A DNA stretch of 64,000 bases, taken from Escherichia coli phage Wa28. A program made the position numbers and the translations under genes. Location: sequence record LC788710.1; one strand, given 5' to 3'. The first letter of the stretch is position 1, and every line of letters starts with the position of its first letter. This document shows positions 26,904 through 57,220 of this stretch, piece by piece. The notes below the pieces were generated by a model. The model worked only from the letters and a program-made list of their open reading frames with translations. It was not told the origin of the DNA and searched no databases.

Positions 26904-26908
26904 GAATT

Positions 26909-27630: not shown

Positions 27631-27649
27631 TTCCTTATTTTGAGTTAAT

Positions 27650-27723: not shown

Positions 27724-27727
27724 AATT

Positions 27728-28269: not shown

Positions 28270-28444
28270 AAACTTCCTTAATAGAGTAGACTTTCAAGTA
28301 AGGATGATTAATACCAAATTCCGCCATTACTTCATTTTCATCTTTACCATAATGGGCTAGTGGATACTTCTTACGATCTTTACTAGAACGTAAATCACTT
28401 ACTTTTAAACGAAATAATTTCATTTCGAAATCCTTCTATTAAAT

Positions 28445-28522
28445 TGGAAGCGGGTGCAGGAATCGAACCTACCTCTTTCTAGCTTATGAGACTAGCGATC
28501 TCTACCAGAGATCTAACCCGCA
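28445..28522 (-). tRNA. tRNA with CAU anticodon (Met, fMet or Ile2)
   Basis: Hand-folded. Confidence 0.6.
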
Positions 28523-28528
28523 ATTGTT

Positions 28529-28606
28529 TGGTCTCCGTGGGAGGATTTGAACCCCCGACCCTATCGCCCCAAACGAAACGCTCTAGCCAAACTGAGCTAC
28601 ACGGAG
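28529..28606 (-). tRNA. tRNA-Pro (UGG)
   Basis: Hand-folded; exact acceptor pairing. Confidence 0.65.
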
Positions 28607-28638
28607 AATATTCTTTGTTAACTCACTTTATAAAATAT

Positions 28639-28667
28639 ATTATACAGAGAATTAAGCTAAATAGCAA
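28639..28667 (-). promoter_or_regulatory. early promoter TTGCTA-17-TATAAT
   Basis: Motif read. Confidence 0.65.
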
Positions 28668-28921
28668 CTACATTTTTTAATAAATTTACTTATTGCGTAG
28701 GCCACCTGGAGGGTTCAAGCCCCACGGCTGACAAAGAAGTTTGCGAGACTTCTCTTAAACGCCAGAATAGACCCGCCGATCTATCGGAACCTACTCAATA
28801 AGTAAACTTTCGTTTACCTACACCTACCTGGTCGGGAGGATTTTCAGCGACTAGAACCGGCCGGAAACTCATCGCCTTGTTTATCTAGGAGTCCGTTCTC
28901 TAGGAAGCAGAAACCTAAATT

Positions 28922-28995
28922 TGGTGCGGTCGGAGGGAATCGAACCCTCAACTTCTGGTTGGCAACCAAAAATTATACCTTTTAACTACGAACGC
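28922..28995 (-). tRNA. tRNA-Gly (GCC)
   Basis: Hand-folded. Confidence 0.7.
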
Positions 28996-29001
28996 ATAAT
29001 A

Positions 29002-29130
29002 AGTCAATCTAGGCAGGACTTGAACCTGCTATCACTTGTGCGGATTTACGAGAACCATTCTTTCACTCGAATCGAACGAGCTTCTACCCTCGGCAAGCTG
29101 GTGTCCCCTCTCCACCACGCTAGAATGATA
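29002..29130 (-). other. two degenerate tRNA-like elements (T-arm-like GCAGG/ACTTGAA/CCTGC and CTCG/AATCGAA/CGAG) lacking full cloverleaf
   Basis: T-arms found; no pairing acceptor or canonical anticodon arm. Confidence 0.3.
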
Positions 29131-29208
29131 ATTAGTGCCTGCTCCTTTGAATCAAGAAGTCCACCCCGGACTTTGGGTCTTTGCAGTACATCACGCTGCT
29201 CTGATGTT

Positions 29209-29285
29209 TGGTACACCCACTAGGACTTGAACCTAGAACCTACCGCTTAAGAGGCGGTAGCTCTAACCAATTGAGCTATGGATGT
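29209..29285 (-). tRNA. tRNA-Lys (CUU)
   Basis: Hand-folded; perfect anticodon stem. Confidence 0.7.
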
Positions 29286-29291
29286 ATAATT

Positions 29292-29366
29292 TGGCGGTAC
29301 TAAGGGTAATCGAAACCCTACCTCTCCCGTGACAGGGGAGTATCCTAACCGTTAGACTATAGTACC
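29292..29366 (-). tRNA. tRNA-Asp (GUC)
   Basis: Hand-folded; exact acceptor pairing. Confidence 0.75.
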
Positions 29367-29938
29367 TTTAACTTTTTAAGTTCTTTAGGATTGCCTCCTA
29401 AAGAAGTGTATCTTTTACGCAACCCATTATCTGAATAACTTAACTTTCTCCCTGCACCTGACCAGCCTAGCTCTCTTACTGTAACCTCGATTATTTCTTT
29501 AGTTATAGAGATATCTTTTGGTTTATGTGAAGAGCACTCCTGACATTTTTCAGCTTTTAAAGAAATAGCTTTACCACAATCCTTACAACAATTATCATGG
29601 TTTAGTTTACTAAATCCTTTATCTTTTAAAGTCTTTTCTAGATGCTGCTCTTTTGTGAGCACTTGTAAGTTATTAAGACCCCAATAAGTAATGTCTGTGT
29701 TAATATGGTCAACTTCTAGTTCAGAGTCTAGACTTGGTAATTTCTTAAATGCACATGCTAAAATCCTATGTACACCGGTATTTCTCTGTTGACCATTTTT
29801 ATGGAGACGTATAGATAAGTATCCGTAATTACTGGTTATTTGGGTTAGTATTTTGTTTGATTTGATACTAAATACTAACCCATCCAAACTTACTAAGTAC
29901 TCCTCAAACCCTGGAATGGGTAAGGATATTCCGTGCAT
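29357..29938 (-). CDS. HNH homing endonuclease
   Basis: NGYLSIRL...HRILACAF...VDHIN motifs; Cys cluster. Confidence 0.65.
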   Translation of the reverse strand: MHGISLPIPGFEEYLVSLDGLVFSIKSNKILTQITSNYGYLSIRLHKNGQQRNTGVHRILACAFKKLPSLDSELEVDHINTDITYWGLNNLQVLTKEQHLEKTLKDKGFSKLNHDNCCKDCGKAISLKAEKCQECSSHKPKDISITKEIIEVTVRELGWSGAGRKLSYSDNGLRKRYTSLGGNPKELKKLKVL

Positions 29939-29941
29939 AAT

Positions 29942-30127
29942 TTACTCAGTTTTGAGTTTTTCGATAGCTTCCTCAACCTCTTTTAGAGCTTCACGACGCT
30001 CTACTTGACCTTGAAGTTCTTCAAGAAGTTCAGCTTTCAGAGCCTTAATAATATTACCACGAACCTTAATATTATTAATCAGATTATCACGATCAGCTTC
30101 TAGTCGAGCAATTGCACGAGTTGTCAT
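29942..30127 (-). CDS. small coiled-coil protein (61 aa)
   Basis: ORF. Confidence 0.4.
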   Translation of the reverse strand: MTTRAIARLEADRDNLINNIKVRGNIIKALKAELLEELQGQVERREALKEVEEAIEKLKTE

Positions 30128-30230
30128 ATCTATTTCCTCAGTTGTTAATGAAAAATGGTATCTGTGACTGAATTCGATATCAGCAATGATAGCTGGTTGG
30201 CTACCGGTTTACTTAACTCTACACAGAATA

Positions 30231-30313
30231 TGGCGGGCCGTGTAGGATTCGAACCTACGTTGTCTTTCGACATGGATTAACAGTCCACCGCCAAACCGCT
30301 TGGCTAACGACCC
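30231..30313 (-). tRNA. tRNA-Asn (GUU) with unusually long (13-nt) variable region
   Basis: Hand-folded. Confidence 0.55.
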
Positions 30314-30320
30314 TAAAATT

Positions 30321-30396
30321 TGGACGACCGCATGAGATTCGAACTCACATAAGGAGGTTTTGCAGGCCTCCGCCTAAGCCATTCAGCCAACGGTCG
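30321..30396 (-). tRNA. tRNA-Cys (GCA)
   Basis: Hand-folded. Confidence 0.6.
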
Positions 30397-30574
30397 ATTT
30401 ATCTTGCTTTTCGAGATTAGTAAACTCTAGATCTTTAGAATGTCCTATAGATCTAGCATAATAGCCATCTCCAGCATCGTAGCCTGATTTACCGCACTCA
30501 CACATCTTAAACTCTCTATAATGAGTGAAAATATGTTCAGAACCACAACACTTAAATTTAACTAACATTTTCAT
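30383..30574 (-). CDS. small zinc-ribbon protein (63 aa)
   Basis: CCGSEH...CECG. Confidence 0.4.
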   Translation of the reverse strand: MKMLVKFKCCGSEHIFTHYREFKMCECGKSGYDAGDGYYARSIGHSKDLEFTNLEKQDKSTVG

Positions 30575-30813
30575 TTAACACGCTCCGGTAAATCTTCGAG
30601 TTTATATTGAGTAGCCACATTAGCAGCATCTAGTAACAAACCCATATGTTTAAGAATCCTAGTGATAGCCTCGCCTTCTGCTTCTTCTACAAAAGTGCGT
30701 AGTTGAATGAAGTCAATACCCCCATCCATACCAGAGAAAATGTTTAGTAAGCGAAGCATTACCAGCTTACGTTCTTTCAATTCTTGTTCTGTCATGTTGC
30801 TTCTCCAGTTCAA
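30571..30813 (-). CDS. hypothetical protein (80 aa)
   Basis: ORF downstream of promoter. Confidence 0.45.
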   Translation of the reverse strand: MNWRSNMTEQELKERKLVMLRLLNIFSGMDGGIDFIQLRTFVEEAEGEAITRILKHMGLLLDAANVATQYKLEDLPERVK

Positions 30814-30824
30814 TTTATGTAATA

Positions 30825-30853
30825 ATTATACAGAACTTTAAGCGGTTAAGCAA
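30825..30853 (-). promoter_or_regulatory. early promoter TTGCTT-17-TATAAT
   Basis: Motif read. Confidence 0.65.
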
Positions 30854-31124
30854 CTACATTTTTTAAGAATTTGATGCCTTTCTTTTTCTTCTTATATTTC
30901 CACGTTAACGGGTTCTGTCGATTATGAACGCTTGAGATCTTTGTCTCGTCAAAGTTCTTCAAAACCATGTAATCACAGGCCAACTGTTCTAGTGGGATGT
31001 GATCTCCATCAAAAGCATAAACATAAGGCTGTTGACTAGCACGATAATGATAGACTTTGTTAATTCTGCGTTTCAGTGACTTATCCGCACAGTAAATAAA
31101 GAAGTTTTCAGGATGCATCAGCAT
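30846..31124 (-). CDS. hypothetical protein (92 aa)
   Basis: ORF. Confidence 0.45.
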   Translation of the reverse strand: MLMHPENFFIYCADKSLKRRINKVYHYRASQQPYVYAFDGDHIPLEQLACDYMVLKNFDETKISSVHNRQNPLTWKYKKKKKGIKFLKNVVA

Positions 31125-31135
31125 CTCCTTAAAAT

Positions 31136-31210
31136 TGGTGCACCCTGTTCGTATCGAACGAACCTCTCAAGCTCTTCAGGCAAGCGCTAATCCATCTCAG
31201 CTAAAGGTGC
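31136..31210 (-). tRNA. tRNA-Phe (GAA), weak anticodon stem
   Basis: Hand-folded; two U-U mismatches in anticodon stem. Confidence 0.5.
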
Positions 31211-31216
31211 AAATAT

Positions 31217-31293
31217 TGGCAAACCTACTAGGACTCGAACCTAGACCGTACGGTTTTGGAGACCGACATGCTGTCCAGTAACACTCTAGGAAT
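31217..31293 (-). tRNA. tRNA-Trp (CCA)
   Basis: Hand-folded; acceptor stem 5/7 paired. Confidence 0.55.
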
Positions 31294-31301
31294 GCAGAAA
31301 T

Positions 31302-31378
31302 TGGCGTCCTGTGCGGGGATCGAACCCGCAAACCCCACCTTGAAAGGGTGGTGACTTTACCAGTTTGTCTAACAGGAC
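31302..31378 (-). tRNA. tRNA-Glu (UUC)
   Basis: Hand-folded; all stems perfect. Confidence 0.8.
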
Positions 31379-31860
31379 TTAAATTGTTTATTGGATAGAT
31401 TGTTAAACTCGGAAAGTATGTCGTCTACACTTCTGTCTAACACTACCCATTCATTAAGCCGTTCAGGAAAGCTATTATGAAGCATTTTCTCCGCTTCTCT
31501 AGCATTAAACCAAAATGACCAATGTATTAACTTATAATCACGTAAGGGAGAATAAGTTTGGTAATTTCCTAATCTTGTTTTAGGATCAGAAGACATACCA
31601 ATTTTTACATAGTTATCCCACGCTGGGTTAGTTATTGCATAAATAAAACCACAGCTGGATTTTTCTCCAATACTTTTGTTATACTTGATAAAAGATAGGG
31701 CAGATAACTTCAAGCTATATCGACGATTACTATCGCGACCAAAGTTAGCTGTACCAAATGTGAGGCTTTCTAATATTAGATCTTTGTTTATATCGGCGGG
31801 TGAACCCAACTGTATAATACCTCTATTTGCAGCTTCTTGAATTATCCGATCAATATACAT
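31369..31860 (-). CDS. T5orf172-domain (GIY-YIG-like) protein
   Basis: GFIYAITNPAWDNYVKIGMS...YQTYSP motif. Confidence 0.65.
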   Translation of the reverse strand: MYIDRIIQEAANRGIIQLGSPADINKDLILESLTFGTANFGRDSNRRYSLKLSALSFIKYNKSIGEKSSCGFIYAITNPAWDNYVKIGMSSDPKTRLGNYQTYSPLRDYKLIHWSFWFNAREAEKMLHNSFPERLNEWVVLDRSVDDILSEFNNLSNKQFKSC

Positions 31861-31877
31861 ATCCTTTACCTTTAATT

Positions 31878-31965
31878 TGGTGGGCGTTAATGGAGTCGAA
31901 CCACTCGAGTCGCAATGACCAGGGATTTACAATCCCCTCCGCTACCACTTACGGAATAAACGCCC
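31878..31965 (-). tRNA. tRNA-Tyr (GUA), type II
   Basis: Hand-folded; long variable arm. Confidence 0.7.
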
Positions 31966-32094
31966 ATATTTAGAAGTATTCAAATACTTGTTTAAACACT
32001 TTTAAATATGTTTTCCAAATTAGATATCTATTATATCAAGTTTTGAAGGACTGAGCAAGTCAAATTTTAAAGAACTTGCTCAGTGCTACATCAG

Positions 32095-32370
32095 TTACTC
32101 GAAGCTAGGAGTGACGCTCAGTTTGAATGGAAGCTCGAACACTTCTTCATAATCATCATTGAGCGTAATTACACGACCTTCTAGCTTAGTCATGGTGATT
32201 TCGATATCAGCCCTTGCATCAGGAGCCATACCAGCTTCCACACATTTAGCTTTAACTTCCGGCAGAAGTTCTACGTCGTAGAAATAAAGCCATTCAATCT
32301 CACCTTCCCAGCCACCCCAGGATTTACAAACAGCACTTTCAACACCAGTTGCAGTAACACGTTTTGACAT
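32095..32370 (-). CDS. hypothetical protein (91 aa)
   Basis: ORF. Confidence 0.5.
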   Translation of the reverse strand: MSKRVTATGVESAVCKSWGGWEGEIEWLYFYDVELLPEVKAKCVEAGMAPDARADIEITMTKLEGRVITLNDDYEEVFELPFKLSVTPSFE

Positions 32371-32400
32371 TCGTTAACTCCTTCATCAATTTATATAACT

Positions 32401-32430
32401 ATTATAACAGAAATCTTAAGTAAAAAGCAA
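32401..32430 (-). promoter_or_regulatory. early promoter TTGCTT-18-TATAAT
   Basis: Motif read. Confidence 0.6.
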
Positions 32431-32460
32431 GTACATTTTTAAAATTTCTGCTTGGAGGAG

Positions 32461-32733
32461 TTAAACTCCTGATTCTTCAGCCAGATCAAGCCCAACCAAC
32501 GTGATTGCCATAATAGCCGCGCCATGTTCTTTCTCCCCTAGCTCTTTGGCTTGAGCGAGAATATTGAGGAATTGCTTTTGAAAATCTGCAACTTCTTCTG
32601 TCATGCCTGCTTCAGCAATAATTCCTTTAAGCATAAAGCGTTGTGCCGTAATTTCAGGATTAGCCATTTGTTTTCTCCAGTTATTTAGAATGTAAGCCAA
32701 ACTTAGGATCATAGCGATCGTAAGTCGTACCAT
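32461..32733 (-). CDS. hypothetical protein (90 aa)
   Basis: ORF. Confidence 0.5.
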   Translation of the reverse strand: MVRLTIAMILSLAYILNNWRKQMANPEITAQRFMLKGIIAEAGMTEEVADFQKQFLNILAQAKELGEKEHGAAIMAITLVGLDLAEESGV

Positions 32734-32818
32734 TAGTTGAAGCCTTAATGCTATGGAAACGACAGTACATAAATTTACGTAGTGCTTTCTTAATAGCTTT
32801 CATTTTATTTCCTTAATT

Positions 32819-32895
32819 TGGTAGGGGTGGTGGGATTCGAACCCACAAAACCTGAATTTTAAGTCCAGTACCTATGCCAATTCGATTACACCCCC
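32819..32895 (-). tRNA. tRNA-Leu (UAA), short variable loop
   Basis: Hand-folded; D-arm poorly paired. Confidence 0.55.
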
Positions 32896-32903
32896 ATGTA
32901 ATC

Positions 32904-33257
32904 TTAGCGAATCTCTAAACCCTGGAAATATCGAGGGAATGGAGAGCCAACTTCAAAATTGATGCCCCAATTAAGTTCAACGAGTTCAGATTTATTAAGA
33001 TCTAGGCCATTACCTTCAAAGATATAGCCGTAAACCGCAGGAAACATAGCTGCTAGATCTTCCATATCGGAATGAGCATTGTGTTCTTCACGGAACTGCT
33101 CAAACTCTTCAAAGAACTTTTCTAGGAAGAACTCAGGTACGATGAACGTTACCACATCAGTAGAATCATCGGTACGATACACCGTAGCTTGGAACAAGCC
33201 AACACCTAAAAGGTTTATTGCCGGAGTAGTAAAAATATCCATCTTAGCCTCGCTCAA
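32904..33257 (-). CDS. hypothetical acidic protein (117 aa)
   Basis: ORF. Confidence 0.5.
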   Translation of the reverse strand: MSEAKMDIFTTPAINLLGVGLFQATVYRTDDSTDVVTFIVPEFFLEKFFEEFEQFREEHNAHSDMEDLAAMFPAVYGYIFEGNGLDLNKSELVELNWGINFEVGSPFPRYFQGLEIR

Positions 33258-33429
33258 TGTCTAGACAAATTGCATATTCAGGGTTGATACCAGTACCTTT
33301 ACATGTAGGACATTCCCATTCTCTACAGAAAATACCCCCCGGTTCTGCATCATCCTGCCTACCACCACCATGACAGTCCTTACACCGACATTCTTCTAAT
33401 GCTTTCTTCATTTCATAGAATCTAGACAT
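33244..33429 (-). CDS. small zinc-ribbon protein (61 aa)
   Basis: CRCKDCHG...CREWECPTC. Confidence 0.45.
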   Translation of the reverse strand: MSRFYEMKKALEECRCKDCHGGGRQDDAEPGGIFCREWECPTCKGTGINPEYAICLDIERG

Positions 33430-33446
33430 ATAGTCTCCTGGTTAAT

Positions 33447-33524
33447 TGGTGGCTCCCGGAGGATTCGAACCTACCTACCTTTCGCTTATGAGGCGACGGC
33501 TCATACCAAATGAGCTTGAGAACC
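33447..33524 (-). tRNA. tRNA with CAU anticodon (Met, fMet or Ile2), third copy
   Basis: Hand-folded; anticodon loop identical to 28445-28522. Confidence 0.6.
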
Positions 33525-33529
33525 AAATT

Positions 33530-33623
33530 TGGAGGAAGATGCCAGACTCGAACTGGCACACCGTGTCTCCACAGCTACTGGCTGTTTAGCAAACAGCTCC
33601 CTTACCTTTAGGGTTAATCTTCC
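33530..33623 (-). tRNA. tRNA-Ser (GCU), type II
   Basis: Hand-folded; perfect anticodon stem, exact acceptor pairing. Confidence 0.7.
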
Positions 33624-33637
33624 GAATTTATGAATAT

Positions 33638-33666
33638 ATTATACAGAAAATTTCGGCATTAAGCAA
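33638..33666 (-). promoter_or_regulatory. early promoter TTGCTT-17-TATAAT
   Basis: Motif read. Confidence 0.65.
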
Positions 33667-33674
33667 GTGAAATT

Positions 33675-33971
33675 TTACTGAACACTGCACTGATACACTT
33701 GTTTGATACGTGTCACTGACTTCTTAGTTGGATTGATAGAAGAACCTTGCCACCAACGTGACTCTGAGCTAAGAACAGCGCCAGGAACAGCCTGCTCTTT
33801 TGGCAGAACAATATCAAAACACTGTTCACCCATATTATCTTTAATGTGTGACCAAATATCCAAAGTAAATCGTTCTAACTTATTACAAACCTGAACTTGA
33901 CAAAGTTCCTGTTGCGGAGCAGCAAATACAGAAGTAGATACTAGAGCCAATGCAAGTACAATGCGTTTCAT
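33675..33971 (-). CDS. secreted protein (signal peptide), 98 aa
   Basis: MKRIVLALALVSTSVFAAP. Confidence 0.5.
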   Translation of the reverse strand: MKRIVLALALVSTSVFAAPQQELCQVQVCNKLERFTLDIWSHIKDNMGEQCFDIVLPKEQAVPGAVLSSESRWWQGSSINPTKKSVTRIKQVYQCSVQ

Positions 33972-34001
33972 GTTTGATTCCTCTCTCGAATTTATAAATA
34001 T

Positions 34002-34030
34002 ATTATACAGAAATTTTCTATATTAAGCAA
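34002..34030 (-). promoter_or_regulatory. early promoter TTGCTT-17-TATAAT
   Basis: Motif read. Confidence 0.65.
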
Positions 34031-34077
34031 GTGAAAATTTCTGTATAATAGCCCTCGCTTAGAGGGCTATAACTACT

Positions 34078-34770
34078 TTATTTGTTAACGCGTACAAAGT
34101 ATCCTTTATAAGCTCCAAGAATAGAGTTGCCTAAGAATACTAGCCACATTGCTAGGATTGCGTAAGATGCACCTGTAGATTGAGCAGTTACAAGCCAAAT
34201 GTACACAGTACCAATGTTAATAGCAATCCAAATCAGCCATTGTTCAGCATATTGTTTGACCATAAGCCACATAGCAATCACACTACCAACCGCAGTAAAT
34301 GCATCCAACATTGGGAATGGATCAGCCGTAGTAGCAAGGAAACTACCATAACCTAACGTGGCTACTGCTAAAATCCCTAGAGTCAGCAAAGCTTGAGCTT
34401 TTGTCAGAACTTTAGTTGGAACATCCGGTAGATTACTTGGCTTATTTTTATGCCACAAGTACATTCCGTAGAACTGCATAGGAACGTAGTACAATAGGTT
34501 TAGTGCTGCGTTACCATAAAGATCAGCATTTAGAGCTGTAATACCGTAGGTCAGAACACCTACCAAACCCCAGACATAGTTGGAAACACGTCCTTTTGCA
34601 ACCAGAATAACACAAACCACATTGGTTATTGCAGTAGCCCAATCTAGAGCTGTACCATTATAGTTTGCTAAACTAATGAAGACAACCGCTATGAACAGCC
34701 ACAGATATTCCAGAGGTTTCCAGTTTTTAAAGTCATTTACGAGATAGTTAGTCATATTAAAACTCTCCAA
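34078..34770 (-). CDS. pnuC: PnuC-family nicotinamide riboside/NMN transporter
   Basis: Multi-TM; EQWLIWIAINIGTVYIW resembles E. coli PnuC ENWLLWVIINVISVVIF. Confidence 0.75.
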   Translation of the reverse strand: MESFNMTNYLVNDFKNWKPLEYLWLFIAVVFISLANYNGTALDWATAITNVVCVILVAKGRVSNYVWGLVGVLTYGITALNADLYGNAALNLLYYVPMQFYGMYLWHKNKPSNLPDVPTKVLTKAQALLTLGILAVATLGYGSFLATTADPFPMLDAFTAVGSVIAMWLMVKQYAEQWLIWIAINIGTVYIWLVTAQSTGASYAILAMWLVFLGNSILGAYKGYFVRVNK

Positions 34771-35830
34771 CGTTAAAGTGATGAATCAGCCAGTCTACTG
34801 CGTTTACTGCTTCGTCCATACGAACTTTGTAGTCCGGAGAGTCGATGTAAACAGTACGCCCTTCAGGGAACTGATTTGGAAATTCTTTCTTCATCTGCTC
34901 GAACAGTTCAGAAGTAATTGAACGATCGGAGTTAATACGTAAACCATCATCTACCCACTTGACAGTAGGCGCTAGAACAATTACTAAATCGTAATGTTCT
35001 TCTTTTGCAATTGCTGTAACCACAGGGTTCTTACTATGTTCATAAAGTCTGTGGTAGAACTCAGTAATAAAAGCATTTGTATCCACAAACATGATCTTAT
35101 TTGCAGTACGTTCTGCTTCAAACTCTAGCTCTTTGTGTCTGAACGCAATTTTACTATAGTCTTCGCTGGTAAGCAGATTTTCGTTACCAACTAGATCAAC
35201 TTCACAATACGTTCGGCCATATTCTTCTACCCACGAAGTGTTGTATAGCTTCGCAAGGTATTTTGTTAAAGTAGTCTTTCCTGAGCTTTCAGTCCCAATG
35301 ATTACAACCTTACGCACGTAATCTTTACGAGCTACGCTAGGAAGAAACTCCCAATACTTCATAAGATCATTACGAATCATTGTAGCTGAGATTGGAACAC
35401 GAGTCCGATCAGAATCTACAATATAATGACCAAACTTCGGCAGATATTTCTTATATTCTGCATCATAGTCTAGTTCGCTAGAGAAAATGGTGATCTCAGG
35501 CAAATGTCCGTAATTTTCATTAAGGATTCTAGCATATTCCGGCCAACCATTCGGATATTCAGGAATATCATCTTCAATAATGTACTCTACCGAAATGTGC
35601 TCAATATCCGCGTAAGTTTGTTCTAACCAACGAAGTCGATTCTTTAACTGTAATACTTCCTGATCACGAGTGTTCTGCTTATCCAGCCAACGATTATCAT
35701 GACTAACTACAACAATAACTCGTTCACACATAGTTGCTGCTGTGTTTATTAGGTTAATATGACCACGCGTTAATGGCGCGAACTTACCAATTACTAGACC
35801 AGTCTTAATCATATTTGATTCCTCTCTCAA
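34757..35830 (-). CDS. nadR: NadR-like bifunctional NMN adenylyltransferase / ribosylnicotinamide kinase
   Basis: N-terminal GKFAPLTRGH nucleotidyltransferase motif; central GTESSGKTT P-loop. Confidence 0.75.
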   Translation of the reverse strand: MREESNMIKTGLVIGKFAPLTRGHINLINTAATMCERVIVVVSHDNRWLDKQNTRDQEVLQLKNRLRWLEQTYADIEHISVEYIIEDDIPEYPNGWPEYARILNENYGHLPEITIFSSELDYDAEYKKYLPKFGHYIVDSDRTRVPISATMIRNDLMKYWEFLPSVARKDYVRKVVIIGTESSGKTTLTKYLAKLYNTSWVEEYGRTYCEVDLVGNENLLTSEDYSKIAFRHKELEFEAERTANKIMFVDTNAFITEFYHRLYEHSKNPVVTAIAKEEHYDLVIVLAPTVKWVDDGLRINSDRSITSELFEQMKKEFPNQFPEGRTVYIDSPDYKVRMDEAVNAVDWLIHHFNVGEF

Positions 35831-35842
35831 ATTTATAAATAT

Positions 35843-35871
35843 ATTATACAGAGAATTTAGCGTTCAAGCAA
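35843..35871 (-). promoter_or_regulatory. early promoter TTGCTT-17-TATAAT
   Basis: Motif read. Confidence 0.65.
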
Positions 35872-36024
35872 TCGAATTTTTAAACTTTTTAGTGGAAAAA
35901 TCTCAAGGCATTTAGTGGTAGCACGTTGTTGCTACAATAATAGTATATGATTCTAAAGAATTAAAGAATTAAATACTAAAGACCTTAGTTGAATAACTTA
36001 TGGGCTTTTCTTTTGCCTTAAATA

Positions 36025-36059
36025 CAGAAAAGCCCGCGCTCTCGGAGGAAACGCGGGCT
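36025..36059 (-). terminator. rho-independent terminator (GCCCGCG..CGCGGGC)
   Basis: 7-bp GC stem with A run on plus. Confidence 0.7.
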
Positions 36060-36083
36060 TGGTTCGAAGATTACGTGTAACTA

Positions 36084-37028
36084 TTACTTGTTACGCATAT
36101 CCATGATCATTTGACCATCGTAGCCAGTACCAACAACAGTCTGCGGTACACCACCTTGGTATTTTTCAGCACGAAGCATTTCAACTTCCAGCTGCTTCCA
36201 ACGAATCATTTCAGGAGTAATGGTACGTTGCAGCGCGGCGTTAGCTTCAGCTTCTTTCTTAGCTGCGTACAGTTTAGCATCTGCGTCACGTTCGTTAGCT
36301 ACTGCCATGTTTTCACGAGCAGAACGATCAGCTTCAGCTTGCTTAACTTTCTGCTGTGCTTCTTGTTCAACACGAGCCAATTCAGCTTTAGCGGCGTTAA
36401 CTTGTTCTTCACGAACTTTTGTGTTTTGTACCTGTTCCATGATTACAGGTGGCAGAGTAATATCCTGAAGGAATACTTGCTTAACCGTGTAACCATAAGG
36501 ACGCGCGTACTCTTCTACTTCTTGCTGAATAGCAGTTTGCAGTTGAGCCTGAATCTTAGCGTCGAACAGATCTTGTGCTTTTGGTACAGACTTACCAAAC
36601 TCACGAATCGTAGATAGCATCTTCTCTTCAACGTACTTGTTCAGAGCTTGATCCTGAGTACCTGCGTTAACACGGTTCATAGGAGCTTTAGCACCATCAA
36701 ACTGCAACATAACGGTAATGTCAACAGTGGACTTAAACTTATCCTGGCTAGGAACCTGGAGTTTATCCAGTTTCATAGAAATATCTTTCGTACTAAAAGT
36801 ATCAAAAGAGGCGAATGGGTTGACAATATGGAACCCCGGCAATACAGGATTAGGACTAACTTTACCCAGGAAAGTCTGAGTTTTAACCGTACCGTCCTGA
36901 ACAACTGTATAGGAATTGAGAGCCAGAATAAGAGCGCCAAGACCAACTACAGCACCAACACCCCAACGTTTAATAGTACGAATTACTTTTTGATCGGAAG
37001 TCAGTTCTTTAGTGTTTTTAGTAAACAT
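36084..37028 (-). CDS. SPFH/band-7 (prohibitin/HflC-like) membrane protein
   Basis: N-terminal TM, SPFH core, Ala/Glu/Lys-rich coiled-coil tail. Confidence 0.75.
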   Translation of the reverse strand: MFTKNTKELTSDQKVIRTIKRWGVGAVVGLGALILALNSYTVVQDGTVKTQTFLGKVSPNPVLPGFHIVNPFASFDTFSTKDISMKLDKLQVPSQDKFKSTVDITVMLQFDGAKAPMNRVNAGTQDQALNKYVEEKMLSTIREFGKSVPKAQDLFDAKIQAQLQTAIQQEVEEYARPYGYTVKQVFLQDITLPPVIMEQVQNTKVREEQVNAAKAELARVEQEAQQKVKQAEADRSARENMAVANERDADAKLYAAKKEAEANAALQRTITPEMIRWKQLEVEMLRAEKYQGGVPQTVVGTGYDGQMIMDMRNK

Positions 37029-37039
37029 ATATTTCCTTA

Positions 37040-37240
37040 TTATTTAGAAGAGTTAGCTACTACAGTTACTTTAGTTGCAGAAATAAACAGGCTAGCATCC
37101 ACAGCAAATTCAGGAGCTTTGATATCTCCGTTATGAAATATGACTATACCGGAGACTACTTCAAATGCTAGCGCTGTAACATCGGTGGTATTTACTTGTG
37201 AATGTTCACCTACTACTTTTACTATATATCGTGTTTTCAC
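37040..37240 (-). CDS. small protein, possible NfeD-like partner of SPFH
   Basis: 66-aa ORF immediately upstream of SPFH gene; beta-rich composition. Confidence 0.35.
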   Translation of the reverse strand: MKTRYIVKVVGEHSQVNTTDVTALAFEVVSGIVIFHNGDIKAPEFAVDASLFISATKVTVVANSSK

Positions 37241-37266
37241 TTTATTTTCCTAGCAGTTAATAAAAT

Positions 37267-37341
37267 TGGCCGAGGTGACAGGATTCGAACCTGCATAAAG
37301 GAATTTAGAAGACTCCTGCCTATCCCTTAGACTACACCCCG
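37267..37341 (-). tRNA. tRNA-Arg (UCU)
   Basis: Hand-folded. Confidence 0.65.
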
Positions 37342-51785: not shown

Positions 51786-51987
51786 CTACAATTTTAAATA
51801 AGCCTATGATATTGCATTTAAATAAAAAATTTGCTTGCTTTTATTGGGAGATGTATGGTACTAGATAATCATTTTATATCGCGTACACGGGTGCGTGATT
51901 ATACTATTTTTAGTAGAGGTTGGCAAATAAAATTTTTTGACTCAGATCAATTTACAGAATGTTATAGTAAAATATTGTTGACATCCG

Positions 51988-52016
51988 CCTTCGAATGAGT
52001 TATAATAGTAGTCTTA
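51988..52016 (+). promoter_or_regulatory. consensus sigma70 promoter TTGACA-17-TATAAT for nrdD
   Basis: Motif read. Confidence 0.75.
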
Positions 52017-52035: not shown

Positions 52036-53910
52036 ATGAATCGCAATGAAGAACTAAAGTATAAAGGAATGCAGTCCTTGATTCGAAACTGCAAAGAAAT
52101 TATCGAAGGTTCAGCAGATGAAGAGCTGCTGTTTAATAATGCCAATAAGCCCTCAGAACGTTTCCCTACACAAAGGGATATGCTTGCAGGGGAATTGAGT
52201 AAATATCTGATTCTGGAAGAAATGCCGATCCAGATTCGAAATGCTCACATGATTGGTGATATTCACTTCCATGATGCTGATTACGCTGCGTTAGGTATGA
52301 CTAACTGTTGCCTGGTTGCTTTGGAAGATATGTTGAAGAATGGTATGAAGGTTGGTAATGCTGAAATCAGTACGCCAAACTCTATCACTACTGCGGCTGC
52401 TATTACAGCTCAGATTATCACTCAGGTTAGCTCACACCAATATGGTGGTACTTCTGTAGACCGATTAGATGAAGTATTGGCTCCTTATGTTCGTAAGTCT
52501 TATGATAAGAATCATGCGTTTGCAAAACGTTGGACTAAGGATGAAGCCAAAGCATCTGTAATGGCTACGGAAATGACTGAGAAAGAAGTTTACGATGCCT
52601 GCCAGGGTCTAGAGTACGAAATCAATACGATGTTCAACTCTAATGGTCAGAGTCCATTTATTACCTTTGGTTTCGGTTTAGGAACTTCTTGGGAAGCACG
52701 TCTTGTACAGAAAGCAATCTTAGAAGTGCGTATGGATGGTTTGGGTATCAATAAACGTACTGCTATCTTCCCTAAACTGGTATTTGTTCTACGTGACGGC
52801 GTAAACATGAAACCTGGCGATGTTAACTATGATATCAAGAAGTTAGCTATGAAGTGTACTGCTGAACGTATGTATCCGGACTATATCAGCTATGATAAGG
52901 TTGTAGAAGTTACGGGGGACTACAAAGTCTCTATGGGCTGTCGTTCATTCCTGGCTGCTGCGGAAGATGGTGAAACTTCTGGTCGTAACAACTTAGGCGT
53001 TGTTTCCGTAAACCTTCCTCGAATCGCTATCGAAGCGGAAGGAAATATTGATCTATTCTTCGATCTGCTTGAGCTGCGTGTGGATACCGCGTTAAAAGCA
53101 TTGGAGTGGAGGGTTGATCGCTTAAAATACATTCAAGCTAAAGCTGCGCCCATCCTCTATATGTCAGGAGCCTTTGGATTACGTCTGGGGCCAGATGAAT
53201 ATGTATTTGATCATTTCTACAAGCGTGCTTCTGTATCCCTAGGATATATTGGCTGCCACGAAATGTTGCAGCTCATGTTTGGTAAAGATGTAGATACAAT
53301 GTCTGAGTCTTGTATCAAGTTCGTTCAACGTGTGCTACAATACATGCGTGATCGTGCTGATCAGAAGAAGGAAGAGACTCAATTAGGGTATAGTCTGTAT
53401 GCTACACCATCTGAATCTCTATGTGATCGCTTCTGTCGCCTAGACCGTGAGTATTTCCCAGAGCATGAAGATATTCTGGCTAAAGGATATTACACTAATT
53501 CCCATCACCTTGATGTAGAACGTAAGGTTGCTCCAAATGTGAAGTTTGATTATGAGTCTAACTTTACTCCTATTGCTTCTGGTGGGTGCATTTCCTATGT
53601 GGAATTACCTGATATGAAACGATTCCCTGATGCATTGGAATGGGTTATTAACTATGCTGCAAGTAAAGTTCATTACTTCGGTATTAATACTCCAGTAGAC
53701 TCTTGTGGGGAATGCGGGTTCTTGGGTGAAACTATAGCTTCTGAGGATGGTTTCAAATGTCCAATTTGTGGCAATCATGATCCTGAGACTCTTGAGGTAA
53801 CTCGTCGAGTTTGTGGATATCTTGGAAATCCAGGTGCTCGTCCGTTTAACCCAGGTAAACAACATGAGGTTATGGGTCGAGTGAAACATCAAGACATTCG
53901 CGCTAAATAA
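52036..53910 (+). CDS. nrdD: anaerobic ribonucleoside-triphosphate reductase (class III)
   Basis: 624 aa; C-terminal CGECGF...CPICG zinc site and RVCGYLG glycyl-radical motif. Confidence 0.9.
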   Translation: MNRNEELKYKGMQSLIRNCKEIIEGSADEELLFNNANKPSERFPTQRDMLAGELSKYLILEEMPIQIRNAHMIGDIHFHDADYAALGMTNCCLVALEDMLKNGMKVGNAEISTPNSITTAAAITAQIITQVSSHQYGGTSVDRLDEVLAPYVRKSYDKNHAFAKRWTKDEAKASVMATEMTEKEVYDACQGLEYEINTMFNSNGQSPFITFGFGLGTSWEARLVQKAILEVRMDGLGINKRTAIFPKLVFVLRDGVNMKPGDVNYDIKKLAMKCTAERMYPDYISYDKVVEVTGDYKVSMGCRSFLAAAEDGETSGRNNLGVVSVNLPRIAIEAEGNIDLFFDLLELRVDTALKALEWRVDRLKYIQAKAAPILYMSGAFGLRLGPDEYVFDHFYKRASVSLGYIGCHEMLQLMFGKDVDTMSESCIKFVQRVLQYMRDRADQKKEETQLGYSLYATPSESLCDRFCRLDREYFPEHEDILAKGYYTNSHHLDVERKVAPNVKFDYESNFTPIASGGCISYVELPDMKRFPDALEWVINYAASKVHYFGINTPVDSCGECGFLGETIASEDGFKCPICGNHDPETLEVTRRVCGYLGNPGARPFNPGKQHEVMGRVKHQDIRAK

Positions 53911-53917
53911 TGAATCA

Positions 53918-53950
53918 GCCAGGTTGCTAGTCGACCTGGCTTTTATTTTA
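53918..53950 (+). terminator. rho-independent terminator (GCCAGGT..ACCTGGC + T run)
   Basis: Hairpin plus TTTTATTTTATTT. Confidence 0.7.
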
Positions 53951-54008: not shown

Positions 54009-54290
54009 ATGAGCGAATTGCTTCCGAAAGTAGATGTTTCCCATCTTGTAGAGCCTAGTGAAGAACGTAAGGCTCTAGATTGGTTGGGCGGATTTGATTA
54101 TCGTCGTGTTGTTGCAACATGGAATGATAAGAAAGTTAAGAAGTTTCGGGTACATTATGTAGGTAAAGACAAGTGGCTCTGGATTGATTATGAAGAATCG
54201 AAGGGGTCTACTAAGGCTGTGAAAATTTATCGTATGTATGGGTATTATTATGCTCACTGTGATAAGAATGAATTTACAGTACAGAACTAA
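54009..54290 (+). CDS. hypothetical protein (93 aa)
   Basis: ORF with GAGAGGAG SD. Confidence 0.5.
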   Translation: MSELLPKVDVSHLVEPSEERKALDWLGGFDYRRVVATWNDKKVKKFRVHYVGKDKWLWIDYEESKGSTKAVKIYRMYGYYYAHCDKNEFTVQN

Positions 54291-54299
54291 GGAACAAGA

Positions 54300-54503
54300 A
54301 TGAAAAACGTAAAACATCTTAAATATCGCTTAATTTACAACGGACGTATGGAAACAGAAGATCTAGCTCAGCTAGCGATCAATTCAGATGAAGTTACAGT
54401 TCGTGCTTTGTCCATCGAGAAGCTGCGTGCTTCTTACGAAAATCGTATTATGGAATTGGAGGAAAAACTTTATGGACTTCTTGAATCAGAATCTAAAAAG
54501 TAA
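54300..54503 (+). CDS. hypothetical protein (67 aa)
   Basis: ORF. Confidence 0.45.
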   Translation: MKNVKHLKYRLIYNGRMETEDLAQLAINSDEVTVRALSIEKLRASYENRIMELEEKLYGLLESESKK

Positions 54504-54666
54504 TTTAGAAAATATGCTTATGGAGCAGTGGAATGCTGGGTATAATGCTGGAGTAGCTACCTGTATTGCTGGTTTGGATATGCTTATTAAGCAAGAGAAG
54601 GTTCGCCCAGAAGAAGCAATTCTGCTCCAAAATATCATCGAAGGATTCAAGCAAGGAATCGTATAA
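54471..54666 (+). CDS. hypothetical protein (65 aa; start MDFLNQ)
   Basis: Internal Met of track ORF 54388..54666 with GGAGG SD. Confidence 0.4.
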
Positions 54667-55517
54667 TGCGTAGACTAATCGTTGTTAGTGGTGCAGGTTT
54701 GAGTGTAGATAGTGGTGTTCGTGCTTTCCGTACTGATACTGCTAGTGGGAAATCCTTATGGGATGAGTACGATCTAGAGGAAGTATGTAGCTTGCCTAAC
54801 TTTGAAGCTGGCTTCCGTCGCTTCTGTGGTGAAGATGATCCTAACTACTTCAGTGCTCGTTTCCCTGGCATTGATGAAGATGGTAACGATCTGTATCTCA
54901 AGACTCATGAGTTCTACAACATGCGTCGTCAGGAATTACAGACTGTTGAGCCTAACATTGCCCATCTGCGAATTGCAGAATGGTTCCAGCGTTATGGTGC
55001 GGATAGCGTGAAGAACTTCACTACTAACGTTGATGACCTTCTGGAACGTGCTGGTATCCCTCGTGATGAAATCATTCACGCTCACGGGTACTTGAAAGAG
55101 GTGATCTATCGTCAGGGTCGCAACCAAATCATTGAAGATGTTGGGTATACTGCGATTGCCCCTGAGGATTACGAATGGGTAAAACCAAACGTAACATTCT
55201 TTGGTGAGACGGCTCCGTGGTATATGGGTCAGATTAACCTGTTTGATACACTTACTAGCAATGATATGGTTATTGTAGTAGGTTGTAGCAACCAAGTAAT
55301 CGACTTCAACTGGGAGCTATTTCCTGCTGTATGTCGTGGAACTAAGATGATGGTTGTTAACCCACAAGTTCGTTATGACGAACAGCTTGAGTATGAGAAA
55401 CGTGGTGTTACTGTATGGCGTGCTGGAGCTGCCGAAGTTTTTGGTAATAAACACTTTATTGATCAAGTTGAAGCTTTTATGGAGGGAAATATTTATGTCC
55501 CAGAAAAGCATGTGTGA
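54666..55517 (+). CDS. Sir2-family (sirtuin-like) NAD-dependent enzyme, no zinc-ribbon
   Basis: GAGLSVDSGVRAFR, TTNVDDLLERAG, HAHG, FFGE, VVGCS motifs. Confidence 0.7.
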   Translation: MRRLIVVSGAGLSVDSGVRAFRTDTASGKSLWDEYDLEEVCSLPNFEAGFRRFCGEDDPNYFSARFPGIDEDGNDLYLKTHEFYNMRRQELQTVEPNIAHLRIAEWFQRYGADSVKNFTTNVDDLLERAGIPRDEIIHAHGYLKEVIYRQGRNQIIEDVGYTAIAPEDYEWVKPNVTFFGETAPWYMGQINLFDTLTSNDMVIVVGCSNQVIDFNWELFPAVCRGTKMMVVNPQVRYDEQLEYEKRGVTVWRAGAAEVFGNKHFIDQVEAFMEGNIYVPEKHV

Positions 55518-55677
55518 TCTTTTAGTATGGCCAGACGGTAGTTGGTGCTACCGTTTCGAATTTGCTACTGATGACTTCTCATGGAAGAGTGATGATTTCT
55601 GCGTTATCTATGAGGATACAGCAGAATGGAAAGAGTTCCTTATTAAGGAGGGAGAATATGGTGAAGAAGATTTTTAA
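55494..55677 (+). CDS. hypothetical protein (60 aa)
   Basis: Internal Met of track ORF with GGAGGG SD. Confidence 0.4.
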
Positions 55678-55843
55678 GGGTATCTGGAAAGGTCTAGTAT
55701 GGTTTGTTAACCTAATCGGTATGATTACCATTTATTCTCTGTTCCTATCTGTTATGTGGGGTAAAGGTGAGCTGAAGGTTCCAATTCCTTTTACTGATGA
55801 AGTTAAAGTCTGGACGTGGGATGCTACTGGTGGAAATAAGTAA
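55655..55843 (+). CDS. small membrane protein (62 aa)
   Basis: Internal Met with AGGAGGG SD. Confidence 0.4.
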   Translation, partial: NMVKKIFKGIWKGLVWFVNLIGMITIYSLFLSVMWGKGELKVPIPFTDEVKVWTWDATGGNK

Positions 55844-56336
55844 TACTCCTATAATTTTTCTGGATATTGATGGAGTGCTCAATTCGAGCATCTCTCACCA
55901 TCATGCTCCAGATAGTGAAAAGCTATTCTTTGGTAGTGATTGGGTTTATAAGCCCTTACTCCAGGCTTTTCAGAACTTCCTTAAACCTTCTCCAATAATG
56001 ATTGTTGGGGTATCTTCGTGGTTTTCTGTACGAAACGAGATGGAGAACGTCCAGATTATGACCGGACTCGGTTTGATCGATCGTTTTCTTGGTACTACAG
56101 ATTTTACTGGAGGTGGTTTATATCGAGGTAATTCTGTCTTACGTTTCGTAGAAAAACATAAGCTCAAGCATTGGTGCGTCCTAGATGATGCTGGTGCTAT
56201 GATGTACCAATTTCCTACTGTTATTGTAAATGGCAGGAATGGAATAAACCTTCAAGATTTAAATGCTATAAGCTATATGCTGGAATTTAGTCCAGATCTT
56301 GAAATGTGTAAGGCTCTTCAGAAACTTAAGGTATAA
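55797..56336 (+). CDS. HAD-superfamily hydrolase (start uncertain)
   Basis: IIFLDIDGVLN motif I. Confidence 0.55.
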   Translation: MKLKSGRGMLLVEISNTPIIFLDIDGVLNSSISHHHAPDSEKLFFGSDWVYKPLLQAFQNFLKPSPIMIVGVSSWFSVRNEMENVQIMTGLGLIDRFLGTTDFTGGGLYRGNSVLRFVEKHKLKHWCVLDDAGAMMYQFPTVIVNGRNGINLQDLNAISYMLEFSPDLEMCKALQKLKV

Positions 56337-56338
56337 GC

Positions 56339-56767
56339 ATGTTCAATAATATTTTCATGAAAGAGGTAAATCCTATGCTCCTCAACTTCTGGCGTTCTCT
56401 CCCTAATGGTATGTACAATGAAACCATCAATCTGCTTAAGATTTGGTGTGAGAATAACGATATCTTCCTGTCTTTTAAAGGCCCACTAGAGGAAGCTCCG
56501 TGTATTGGAGTTAGCGTGGATTTAGGGGAGGGAGTAGAAGAAATTGTAGACTGGAAAGAACTCGATGAAATGGGTCTGGTTTTTGCCTTGAACCATAAGC
56601 TGTTTATGCCTGCAAATCACCGTCTTATTGTAAACTATCGCACTGGTGAAGCTCCTGCTTTCCAGGTAAATGAACGTGAGGGCTGGTCATATTCGCCCGA
56701 AGAAGTAAATGAGGGGATTCAGAAACTTCGTCGTTTCGGGTATATGATCCCAGGTTTAACTGCTTAA
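56339..56767 (+). CDS. hypothetical protein, paralog A (142 aa)
   Basis: Shares WxELxxMGLxxALN...GExP...PGL pattern with next ORF. Confidence 0.55.
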   Translation: MFNNIFMKEVNPMLLNFWRSLPNGMYNETINLLKIWCENNDIFLSFKGPLEEAPCIGVSVDLGEGVEEIVDWKELDEMGLVFALNHKLFMPANHRLIVNYRTGEAPAFQVNEREGWSYSPEEVNEGIQKLRRFGYMIPGLTA

Positions 56768-56776
56768 GGAGGCAGA

Positions 56777-57172
56777 ATGGAACAAGTATTTTGGCGTCAG
56801 ATAGATCCTAGTTTGGTAGAGCGTGCTGAAGGGCTCCTTGCACGTTGGTGGGGGGTTGACAAGGTTAGTGTAACATTTCCGTTTACTTCTGTAACAGACC
56901 CTAGTGTAGGTGTCTTTGTGGACGAAGATGAAGATGATGGTTGGGAAGCTGACTGGAATGAATTGTCCAGTATGGGCTTGATTGTTGCCCTCAACTTCTC
57001 TATATTCCACCCACGTGGTTTAGCTATTACACGTGATCCCGAAACCGGTGAATCCCCTTATCTTTTGCAAGTAGAAGATGATATTTGGGAGTACACCGAA
57101 GATATTCTCGAAGAAGCTAAAGGTCAATTAAATCGCATTGGGATCTATGTTCCAGGCCTAAATGATGATTGA
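56777..57172 (+). CDS. hypothetical protein, paralog B (131 aa)
   Basis: Tandem paralog of 56339..56767. Confidence 0.55.
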   Translation: MEQVFWRQIDPSLVERAEGLLARWWGVDKVSVTFPFTSVTDPSVGVFVDEDEDDGWEADWNELSSMGLIVALNFSIFHPRGLAITRDPETGESPYLLQVEDDIWEYTEDILEEAKGQLNRIGIYVPGLNDD

Positions 57173-57196
57173 TTTTCATTAGTCCAATCCTGATTA

Positions 57197-57220
57197 CCGA
57201 GTCATTTTGGCTCGGTTTTC
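57197..57220 (+). terminator. rho-independent terminator (CCGAG..CTCGG + TTTT)
   Basis: Hairpin plus T run. Confidence 0.6.

Follow-up and report, generated by a model that had tools for sequence, protein, structure and literature searches.

A CobB-like sirtuin without zinc ligands, paired with a HAD_SAK_2 phosphatase gene in T5-like phages, as a candidate NAD+-dependent RNA-end healing module

Introduction

The question raised by this locus is what a virulent phage does with a sirtuin. The window analyzed here, that is, the whole stretch of 64,000 nucleotides (nt) from Escherichia coli phage Wa28 (LC788710.1; all coordinates refer to this stretch), carries a gene of the Sir2 family followed at a short distance by a gene for a HAD-family phosphatase:

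54666..55517, + strand: Sir2-family sirtuin, 283 amino acids (aa), ATG start
55821..56336, + strand: HAD_SAK_2 phosphatase, 171 aa; an alternative start at 55797 would give 179 aa

The reading that we prefer, with a probability of roughly 0.4, is that the two proteins would form a module for RNA-end healing that depends on nicotinamide adenine dinucleotide (NAD+). We infer RNA as the substrate, the 2'-phosphate as the attacked group, and the target of the HAD protein; general protein deacetylation is not the most likely job of the Sir2 protein. The RNA-repair idea originates from Iyer, Burroughs, Anantharaman and Aravind (2022, Viruses 14:1977, PMC9503650), and we count this as a point in its favor. 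These authors assigned most viral sirtuins to a distinct clade with three types of gene neighborhood, the third being represented by the T5-like Escherichia phage SP15, in which the sirtuin accompanies a "Swiss-army-knife" HAD phosphatase, and proposed a KptA-like role in which the sirtuin strips 2'-phosphates from RNA (PMC9503650). The window gene belongs to this clade of phage RNA-repair sirtuins, which is spread through proteobacterial phages: its product shows 35-58% identity to the exemplars named for the clade (Serratia phage BF, Mydovirus) and to the Phapecoctavirus homologues, the gene lies in a HAD_SAK neighborhood of type 3, and no macrodomain gene is found next to it.

The "Sir2-like" annotation is thus routine, and the clade, the HAD neighborhood, and the proposed function have all been in print since 2022, while the literature search turned up no experiments on phage sirtuins, T5-like or other. 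The present analysis adds the loss of the zinc ligands coupled to a change of the TQN motif to TTN, the retention of the class III Y-x-x-R motif, the acidic isoelectric point (pI), a conserved small open reading frame (ORF) of the phrog_5116 family, two divergent alleles at one locus, and new lineages in which the order of the HAD gene differs.

Results and Discussion

Catalytic motifs and loss of the zinc ligands

The Sir2 ORF is 100% identical to a GenBank entry, "putative Sir2-like protein [Salmonella phage gmork]". Its sole Pfam match is PF02146 (SIR2; E = 1.4e-21; 77.7 bits, cut-off 24), and it matches phrog_2162 with an E value of 2.5e-107. The protein was aligned with 28 close homologues (56-79% identity) and a further 13 distant sequences. 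Invariant among the 28 are G9-A10-G11-x-S13, F21-R22, N121-x-D123, H140-G141, F179-G-E181, G206-x-S208, and N232, and the residues G9-A10-G11-S13, F21-R22, N121, D123, H140-G141, G206-S208, and N232 are also invariant across the 13 distant sequences. The protein has a sirtuin fold, with H140, N121, and D123 as its catalytic residues. Because these three residues and the NAD-binding motifs are invariant, the phage sirtuin is very likely an NAD+-consuming enzyme; all residues required for NAD+ binding and nicotinamide cleavage are retained. An inactive remnant was rejected on the ground that the catalytic residues do not vary across 978 records.

An initial annotation made from the letters of the window had listed a 283-aa Sir2-like protein with the full sirtuin motif set and without a CxxC zinc module, small ORFs around it, and a HAD gene about 300 bp downstream, all in a lytic phage. 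This parts list was borne out, with one correction concerning the motif set: the NAD-binding and catalytic motifs are present, whereas the Gln of TQNxD is replaced by Thr (T120, in TTNVDD), a replacement that is invariant throughout the clade. The Cys4 zinc ribbon expected between the HG and FGE motifs is absent, with no Cys in residues 141-172, between H140-G141 and K173-P174-N175. In the alignment to E. coli CobB (sequence from NC_000913), the zinc ligand C155 corresponds to Y148, and C174 and C177 fall in a deletion. The AlphaFold2 (AF2) model, with a predicted local distance difference test (pLDDT) score of 87.4, contains a confident beta-hairpin at residues 141-158, a leftover of the zinc ribbon. 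Compared with CobB, the phage protein also bears a variable 30-aa insert (residues 48-77), and it is acidic, as are all clade members examined (pI 4.6-5.4, net charge -10 to -23).

The jumbo-phage relatives L061 and L062 (33-35% identity) retain both the TQN motif and the four Cys. Searching 1.84 billion representatives with a profile gave 4735 hits at E <= 1e-3, the best 150 of which were inspected (for the comparison of TQN or TTN with the Cys count, representatives P0007 and P0148-P0296). Among these best 150, sequences with TTN[VI]D mostly had no Cys in the zinc region and those with TQN had four, with few exceptions. Since L061 and L062 keep the zinc Cys together with TQN, and since the two motif forms track the Cys count in the best 150, zinc loss is a derived trait of a phage lineage that is otherwise CobB-like, and the change from TQN to TTN arose together with it; kinship with ThsA or DSR is not indicated by it. 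Among the exceptions were P0211 and P0266, with TTN and four Cys, and P0180 and P0263, with TQN and none. The zinc-less form comprises dozens of clusters at 50% identity, and 978 phage records hold a homologue. Domain fusions gave no hint of a function: in the nine longest proteins among these 150, the SIR2 domain is accompanied by nothing but one WG repeat, and the four longest (427-528 aa) are of the zinc-bearing TQN type.

Linkage of Sir2 to RNA-repair, ADP-ribose, and NAD genes

The RNA-end healing reading is supported by the repeated linkage of Sir2 genes to genes for RNA repair, ADP-ribose processing, and NAD salvage. Our neighborhood analysis reproduced the three types of Iyer et al., with types 1 and 2 re-derived independently, and added further lineages. 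In the Escherichia and Salmonella T5-likes the order is constant, running from NrdD through small ORFs, Sir2, HAD, and two DUF7415 genes to the origin-binding helicase. Two divergent Sir2 alleles occupy this one locus in Markadamsvirinae, with about 100% and about 51% identity to the window protein (loci L023-L043, L051, L052, and L056). The Escherichia and Salmonella T5-likes with either allele carry the HAD gene, whose product remains 87-98% identical even beside the 51%-identical Sir2. The window allele is closer to the proteins of Klebsiella T5-likes and Phapecoctavirus (58-63%) than to the second allele, which has a C-terminal insert in common with phages of the L053/L054 type. The two alleles look like a gene replacement through recombination between phage groups.

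Beyond these phages, the linkage between Sir2 and HAD_SAK_2 is kept in independent, diverged lineages with different gene orders. In locus L014 Sir2 is linked to a HAD gene (44% identity). Locus L069 has the order PhoH, NrdD, phrog_7953, HAD (40% identity), two further genes, Sir2, and phrog_5116, and in the marine contigs L072 and L073 Sir2 overlaps a NadR-like gene, with HAD_SAK_2 located 2.3 kb downstream. In eight loci of the Vequintavirinae type, Sir2 lies within a recognizable RNA-repair cassette that runs from Metallophos through an Rnl1-type RNA ligase (PF09511, 2.9e-13), cREC (4e-17), and an AAA_33 kinase to Sir2 and an ATP-dependent DNA ligase; a MazG-like gene lies downstream. Other arrangements were RlaP, Sir2, and NADAR (L074), and RlaP, NAMPT further along, and then Sir2, EndoVII, and NrdD (L076). 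In Serratia phage BF, Sir2 is accompanied by 2H/Acb1-like, Nudix, NAMPT, and NMNAT-like genes. HAD_SAK_2 was also found without Sir2, near an Rnl2-type ligase, in L070. At least five phage lineages that differ in other respects have NrdD within a few kb of a member of this clade (the window, L059, L060, L069, and L076), and PhoH is often near; this may reflect either a functional link or a common module of nucleotide metabolism.

Two further features of the window fit RNA-end healing. The first is a set of 29 transfer RNA (tRNA) genes predicted by ARAGORN, which form a single minus-strand cluster at 23882-37341 with small ORFs interleaved; such a cluster is typical of T5-likes and is relevant to any strategy of tRNA repair or replacement. 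The second is a pair of genes for NAD+ synthesis:

34078..34770, - strand: PnuC-like transporter of nicotinamide riboside or nicotinamide mononucleotide (NMN), PF04973 4.4e-43
34757..35830, - strand: NadR-like NMN adenylyltransferase (NMNAT) plus kinase, with AAA_28 and CTP_transf_like domains

In the T5-like phage Bas30, the PnuC-like and NadR-like homologues form the NARP3 pair, which rebuilds NAD+ (PMC13464706). Because the window genes are homologues of that pair, the phage is predicted both to consume and to rebuild NAD+.

The HAD phosphatase and the small partner ORF

The HAD protein matches PF18143 (HAD_SAK_2) with an E value of 6e-18, and the start at 55821 is more likely than the one at 55797. 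Its gene begins 280-304 bp behind the Sir2 stop, and the gap holds the conserved ORFs at 55510-55677 and 55658-55843. HAD motifs I-IV are all represented, with invariant residues DxD (D15, D17), S65, R102, and D122-D123. The structural model (pLDDT 94) gave weak matches to capless HADs alone in a fold search (E >= 3.5e-3), among them the phosphatase domains of T4 and mammalian PNKP; the protein is apparently a small, capless HAD.

The 55-aa ORF of phrog_5116 stands directly 3' of Sir2 in most of the T5-like loci examined, including the HAD-less Klebsiella T5-likes, as well as in the distant locus L069, and it is unannotated in RefSeq NC_048811. From this conserved position, its product may be a partner or regulator of Sir2.

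A proposed mechanism and its weak points

In the proposed scheme, the sirtuin, paired with the capless HAD_SAK_2 protein, would perform one step in the healing of damaged RNA (probably of tRNA). ADP-ribose from NAD+ would be transferred by the sirtuin to a phosphate at a broken or re-joined RNA end, for example a 2'-phosphate, with an oxygen of the RNA phosphate acting where the carbonyl oxygen of acyl-lysine acts in the usual sirtuin reaction. H140 would then activate the ribose 2''-OH, the RNA would be expelled, and ADP-ribose 1'',2''-cyclic phosphate would be formed. The HAD protein might either remove terminal 2'/3'-phosphates from the RNA or dephosphorylate the ADP-ribose phosphate by-product, and NAD+ would be supplied through the phage PnuC and NadR genes. 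This would be the chemistry of KptA/Tpt1 enzymes, in which ADP-ribose from NAD+ is moved onto a phosphate and the 2''-OH then attacks, releasing nicotinamide and ADP-ribose 1'',2''-cyclic phosphate. The Y84/R87 pair, which in class III sirtuins is an anion-binding site, favors this scheme, as does the truncation of the zinc module, which would alter the substrate cleft. The suggestion in the initial annotation of a module processing ADP-ribose or NAD metabolites comes close to this scheme. A bolder version, in which this would be the first sirtuin acting on nucleic acid, removing 2'-phosphates (or other terminal phosphates) from damaged tRNA in an NAD+-dependent manner as a convergent replacement for Tpt1/KptA and working with the HAD protein and the 55-aa partner against tRNA-cleaving host defenses, is in our estimation doubtful.

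Several observations weigh against RNA-end healing. We know of no sirtuin that acts on RNA; the acidity of the clade is unlike that of a typical RNA-binding enzyme, and the class III machinery for acyl-lysine is intact (FGE loop, C41/Y84/R87). The T5-like genome has no annotated RNA ligase or polynucleotide kinase, and tblastn searches with Mydovirus proteins did not find one either; repair would therefore need the host RtcB or another ligase. The T4-type Pnkp/Rnl1 pathway leaves no 2'-phosphate, and the "RNA repair" label of HAD_SAK_2 is itself a prediction based on context. Klebsiella T5-likes and L017 have Sir2 without a HAD gene. When the Phapecoctavirus neighbors (DUF7275/7277 and the 227-aa and 217-aa proteins) were compared by hhalign with Rnl1, Metallophos, AAA_33 kinase, and cREC, probabilities did not exceed 0.7%; Pfam and PHROGs yielded nothing useful for these neighbors, the 157-aa protein included. 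Finally, early phage regions pack auxiliary genes densely, and adjacency may overstate functional linkage.

Relationship to CobB and the lysine deacylase alternative

The best match of the phage protein among solved structures, by sequence, was E. coli CobB (E = 1.7e-16). The structure comparison upheld the sirtuin fold and also placed CobB first (E = 2.6e-16, TM 0.83), with all of the top 50 Foldseek matches being canonical deacylase sirtuins. The comparison values for the subtypes were 21.3 for Sir2Af1, 19.3 for PfSir2A, 18.0 for SIRT4, 17.7 for SIRT2, and 17.6 for SIRT1, followed in the same list by SirTM (14.6), SIRT6 (14.4), PsSIR2 (13.5), HerA-Sir2 (12.2), ThsA (11.4), and Avs5 (9.3-9.9). 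The phage protein is structurally nearer to the deacylases than to any NADase Sir2. No PADLOC defense model matched at E <= 0.1, and Pfam gave no SIR2_2 match. The 283-aa protein is standalone, with no sensor or partner (SLOG, HerA, pAgo/APAZ, STAND) fused to it or encoded beside it; its neighbors are NrdD, small ORFs, HAD, and DUF7415.

The acyl pocket is likewise of the CobB type. Residues A76, Y92, R95, I131, and V187 of CobB correspond to C41, Y84, R87, V122, and V176 of the phage protein. Y84 is invariant in both alignments; R87 does not vary among the 28 close homologues but is replaced by Leu in two distant sequences, those of Serratia phage BF and L062. The Y-x-x-R motif is accordingly present together with a small residue, C41, at the position of CobB A76 and SIRT5 A86. 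This combination is the signature of class III sirtuins, and in SIRT5 and CobB it binds the carboxylate of succinyl- or malonyl-lysine. Given the sequence and fold matches to CobB, the comparison values, the lack of a PADLOC match, and the kept acyl pocket, the phage protein is best classified as a divergent class III-like sirtuin and not as a relative of the defense NADases. The claim of the initial annotation that it resembles defense-type Sir2 NADases rather than CobB therefore did not hold; the annotation as a whole was partly supported, with a correct list of parts and a mistaken Sir2 subtype.

The main alternative to RNA-end healing is a CobB/SIRT5-like lysine deacylase (deacetylase, desuccinylase, or demalonylase) acting on host or phage proteins, with HAD as a mere neighbor. 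Its targets might be, for example, inhibitory acyl marks on enzymes of translation, transcription, or nucleotide metabolism, removed during infection. The nearest sequence and fold matches, CobB and the class III sirtuins, point to such an activity, as do the conservation across the clade of the catalytic His/Asn/Asp, of the FGE peptide-binding loop, and of the class III pocket, and the existence of lineages in which Sir2 occurs without HAD or any RNA-repair gene. The NCBIfam matches were exclusively to CobB-type deacylase models, yet at 87.7, 71.7, and 71.3 bits they stay far below the curated equivalog cut-offs of 243, 318, and 320. The zinc domain of CobB serves substrate binding (PMC8603916); in the phage protein this module is shortened and has no ligands, and its truncation would therefore alter the substrate cleft. 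The invariant change from Gln to Thr, moreover, lies in the NAD-ribose-binding TQN motif, and a deacylase would leave unexplained the repeated linkage to HAD_SAK_2, Rnl1, cREC, RlaP, NADAR, Nudix, and 2H genes. Overall, we regard a plain deacylase as somewhat unlikely.

Effector and counter-defense alternatives

A second alternative is that the protein is an NADase or protein ADP-ribosyltransferase effector, depleting NAD+ or modifying host proteins in the manner of T4 Alt/Mod or SirTM. In its favor, NADase-type Sir2 domains share the loss of the zinc module, and the gene is part of an early block that holds replication genes on the same strand. The structural proximity to deacylases and the lack of PADLOC and SIR2_2 matches speak against it, as does the lack of a macrodomain partner, unlike SirTM systems; no macrodomain was found in any Sir2 neighborhood examined. 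The genome also rebuilds NAD+ through PnuC and NadR and uses an NAD-dependent DNA ligase, so wholesale NAD+ depletion would be self-defeating, and the gene is dispensable, having been lost by natural deletion in phage DT57C. We consider this alternative improbable, and nothing favors the NAD+-consuming effector on host proteins named in the initial annotation over the other readings. A toxin/antitoxin system of the SirTM type was ruled out separately, there being no macrodomain in the operon or as a fusion.

The region around Sir2 in Serratia phage BF (NMNAT-like, NAMPT, 2H/Acb1-like, Sir2, Nudix, PhoH) resembles an anti-defense island because an Acb1-like gene adjoins NAMPT and an NMNAT-like gene. 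The gene labeled "RNA ligase" next to Sir2 in BF (L064 5281-5727) has its better match in the anti-CBASS Acb1 family of 2H phosphodiesterases (PF23474, 3.6e-15), ahead of the 2'-5' RNA ligase family. The last alternative, a counter-defense enzyme that would, with the NAD-salvage genes, destroy or recycle NAD-derived immune signals or by-products of TIR/Sir2 defenses rather than act on RNA, could draw on this region, on the NAMPT or NadR-like genes adjoining Sir2 in L060, L072, and L076, on the NADAR gene adjoining it in L074, and on an Acb2/Tad1-hairpin gene 4 kb upstream in Phapecoctavirus, but we give it only a slim chance: no sirtuin chemistry known to us degrades cyclic ADP-ribose signals, NAD-salvage neighbors would be expected equally for any NAD+-consuming enzyme, and the salvage genes of the window lie 19 kb off on the opposite strand.

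Organization of the locus

Over the 3.2 kb at the Sir2 locus, Phage NBSal002 and Salmonella phage EH3 show 99.9% identity, and 465 phage records match this region. Because almost all of these are T5-like and the top RefSeq match is Salmonella phage 1-29 (Demerecviridae, Markadamsvirinae, Epseptimavirus), the source phage is a virulent, T5-like phage. The features around the two main genes are as follows:

51978..52006, + strand: sigma-70-type promoter of consensus sequence, TTGACA-17-TATAAT (12/12), 5' of nrdD
52036..53910, + strand: NrdD-like anaerobic ribonucleotide reductase, upstream neighbor of the Sir2 block
53917..53941, + strand: terminator-like hairpin directly 3' of nrdD, with a 10 bp stem and a T-run behind it
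54009..54290, + strand: small ORF, 93 aa, phrog_7953, also found behind NrdD in locus L069
54300..54503, + strand: small ORF, 67 aa, phrog_5236
54472..54666, + strand: small ORF, at most 64 aa, phrog_5827, start uncertain, abutting the Sir2 start
55510..55677, + strand: small acidic ORF, 55 aa, phrog_5116, whose ATG overlaps the Sir2 stop (ATGTGTGA)
55658..55843, + strand: small ORF, 61 aa, with one hydrophobic helix, phrog_11166, overlapping the HAD start
56339..56767, + strand: DUF7415 protein, 142 aa, first tandem paralogue
56777..57172, + strand: DUF7415 protein, 131 aa, second tandem paralogue
57196..57216, + strand: terminator-like hairpin closing the gene block 54009-57172

The block at 54009-57172 is tightly packed on the + strand and flanked by the two terminator-like hairpins. 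The only strong promoter-like site upstream of it is the one at 51978..52006. A second near-consensus sigma-70 promoter (11/12) lies back to back with it on the - strand, at 51926-51898, and the pair is located at about 52 kb, where coding strand and GC skew both flip. The segment 51898-52006 appears to be a divergent early-promoter region that separates the PhoH/Nrd block from the block of NrdD, Sir2, and replication genes. The phrog_5827 ORF and Sir2 have overlapping stop and start codons (TAATG), an arrangement suggestive of coupled translation. The phrog_11166 ORF has a strong ribosome-binding site, AAGGAGG, and is found in only some T5-likes. The DUF7415 pair is always downstream of Sir2/HAD in T5-likes, those without HAD included.

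Annotation of the locus in public records is partly misleading. In Salmonella phage 1-29 the label "Sir2 (NAD-dependent deacetylase)" belongs to the Sir2 gene itself, and the same label sits on the HAD gene in the RefSeq records of many T5-likes, an annotation error that has spread. The error probably stems from phrog_18062, which spans only the C-terminus of the HAD protein (residues 88-179 of the 179-aa ORF), and the name of this family probably derives from a remnant in phage DT57C, in which a deletion fused the C-terminus of Sir2 to that of HAD. This 90-aa remnant, labeled "Sir2-like protein (defective)" (NC_027356.1 46493-46765; L078 2468-2740), joins Sir2 residues 197-250 to HAD residues 139-179. 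Because DT57C carries this natural deletion, growth on laboratory hosts does not require the Sir2/HAD module, in keeping with an accessory or conditional role.

Implications

If the RNA-repair model were true, sirtuin chemistry would reach from acyl-lysine to RNA phosphate, phages would have a new class of enzyme in their toolkit against anticodon nucleases and similar defenses, and the presence of a "deacetylase" in nearly a thousand sequenced phages would be explained. Under the deacylase model, virulent phages would instead reset the lysine acylation of their hosts.

Comparison with known systems

The closest known counterpart is the clade of Iyer et al. (2022) itself, which has the same T5-like setting and the same pair of sirtuin and HAD; the window gene differs from it in nothing essential. 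With CobB and SIRT5, the phage protein has in common the GAGxS, FR, NxD, HG, FGE, GxS-N, and Y-x-x-R motifs. It differs from CobB in lacking the zinc ligands, in its shortened zinc ribbon, in the Thr that replaces Gln, in its 30-aa insert, and in being acidic where CobB is near neutral; in contrast to CobB and SIRT5, the phage Sir2 genes sit among phage genes for RNA repair and NAD metabolism. The defense Sir2 NADases (ThsA, DSR1/2, Sir2-HerA, SPARSA, and Avs5) have the Rossmann core, the binding of NAD+, and the absence of a Cys4 ribbon in common with the phage protein. The phosphatase domain of T4 Pnkp is of the DxD type like the neighboring HAD_SAK_2 protein, itself apparently capless; the phage protein, however, has no kinase domain, and the matches between the two are weak. 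Finally, KptA/Tpt1 is alike in the proposed reaction and in a gene context of RNA ligases with 2H, cREC, and phosphatase genes, whereas its fold is that of the ADP-ribosyltransferases (ART) and the phage enzyme is a Rossmann-type sirtuin, so that the likeness is mechanistic and drawn by analogy.

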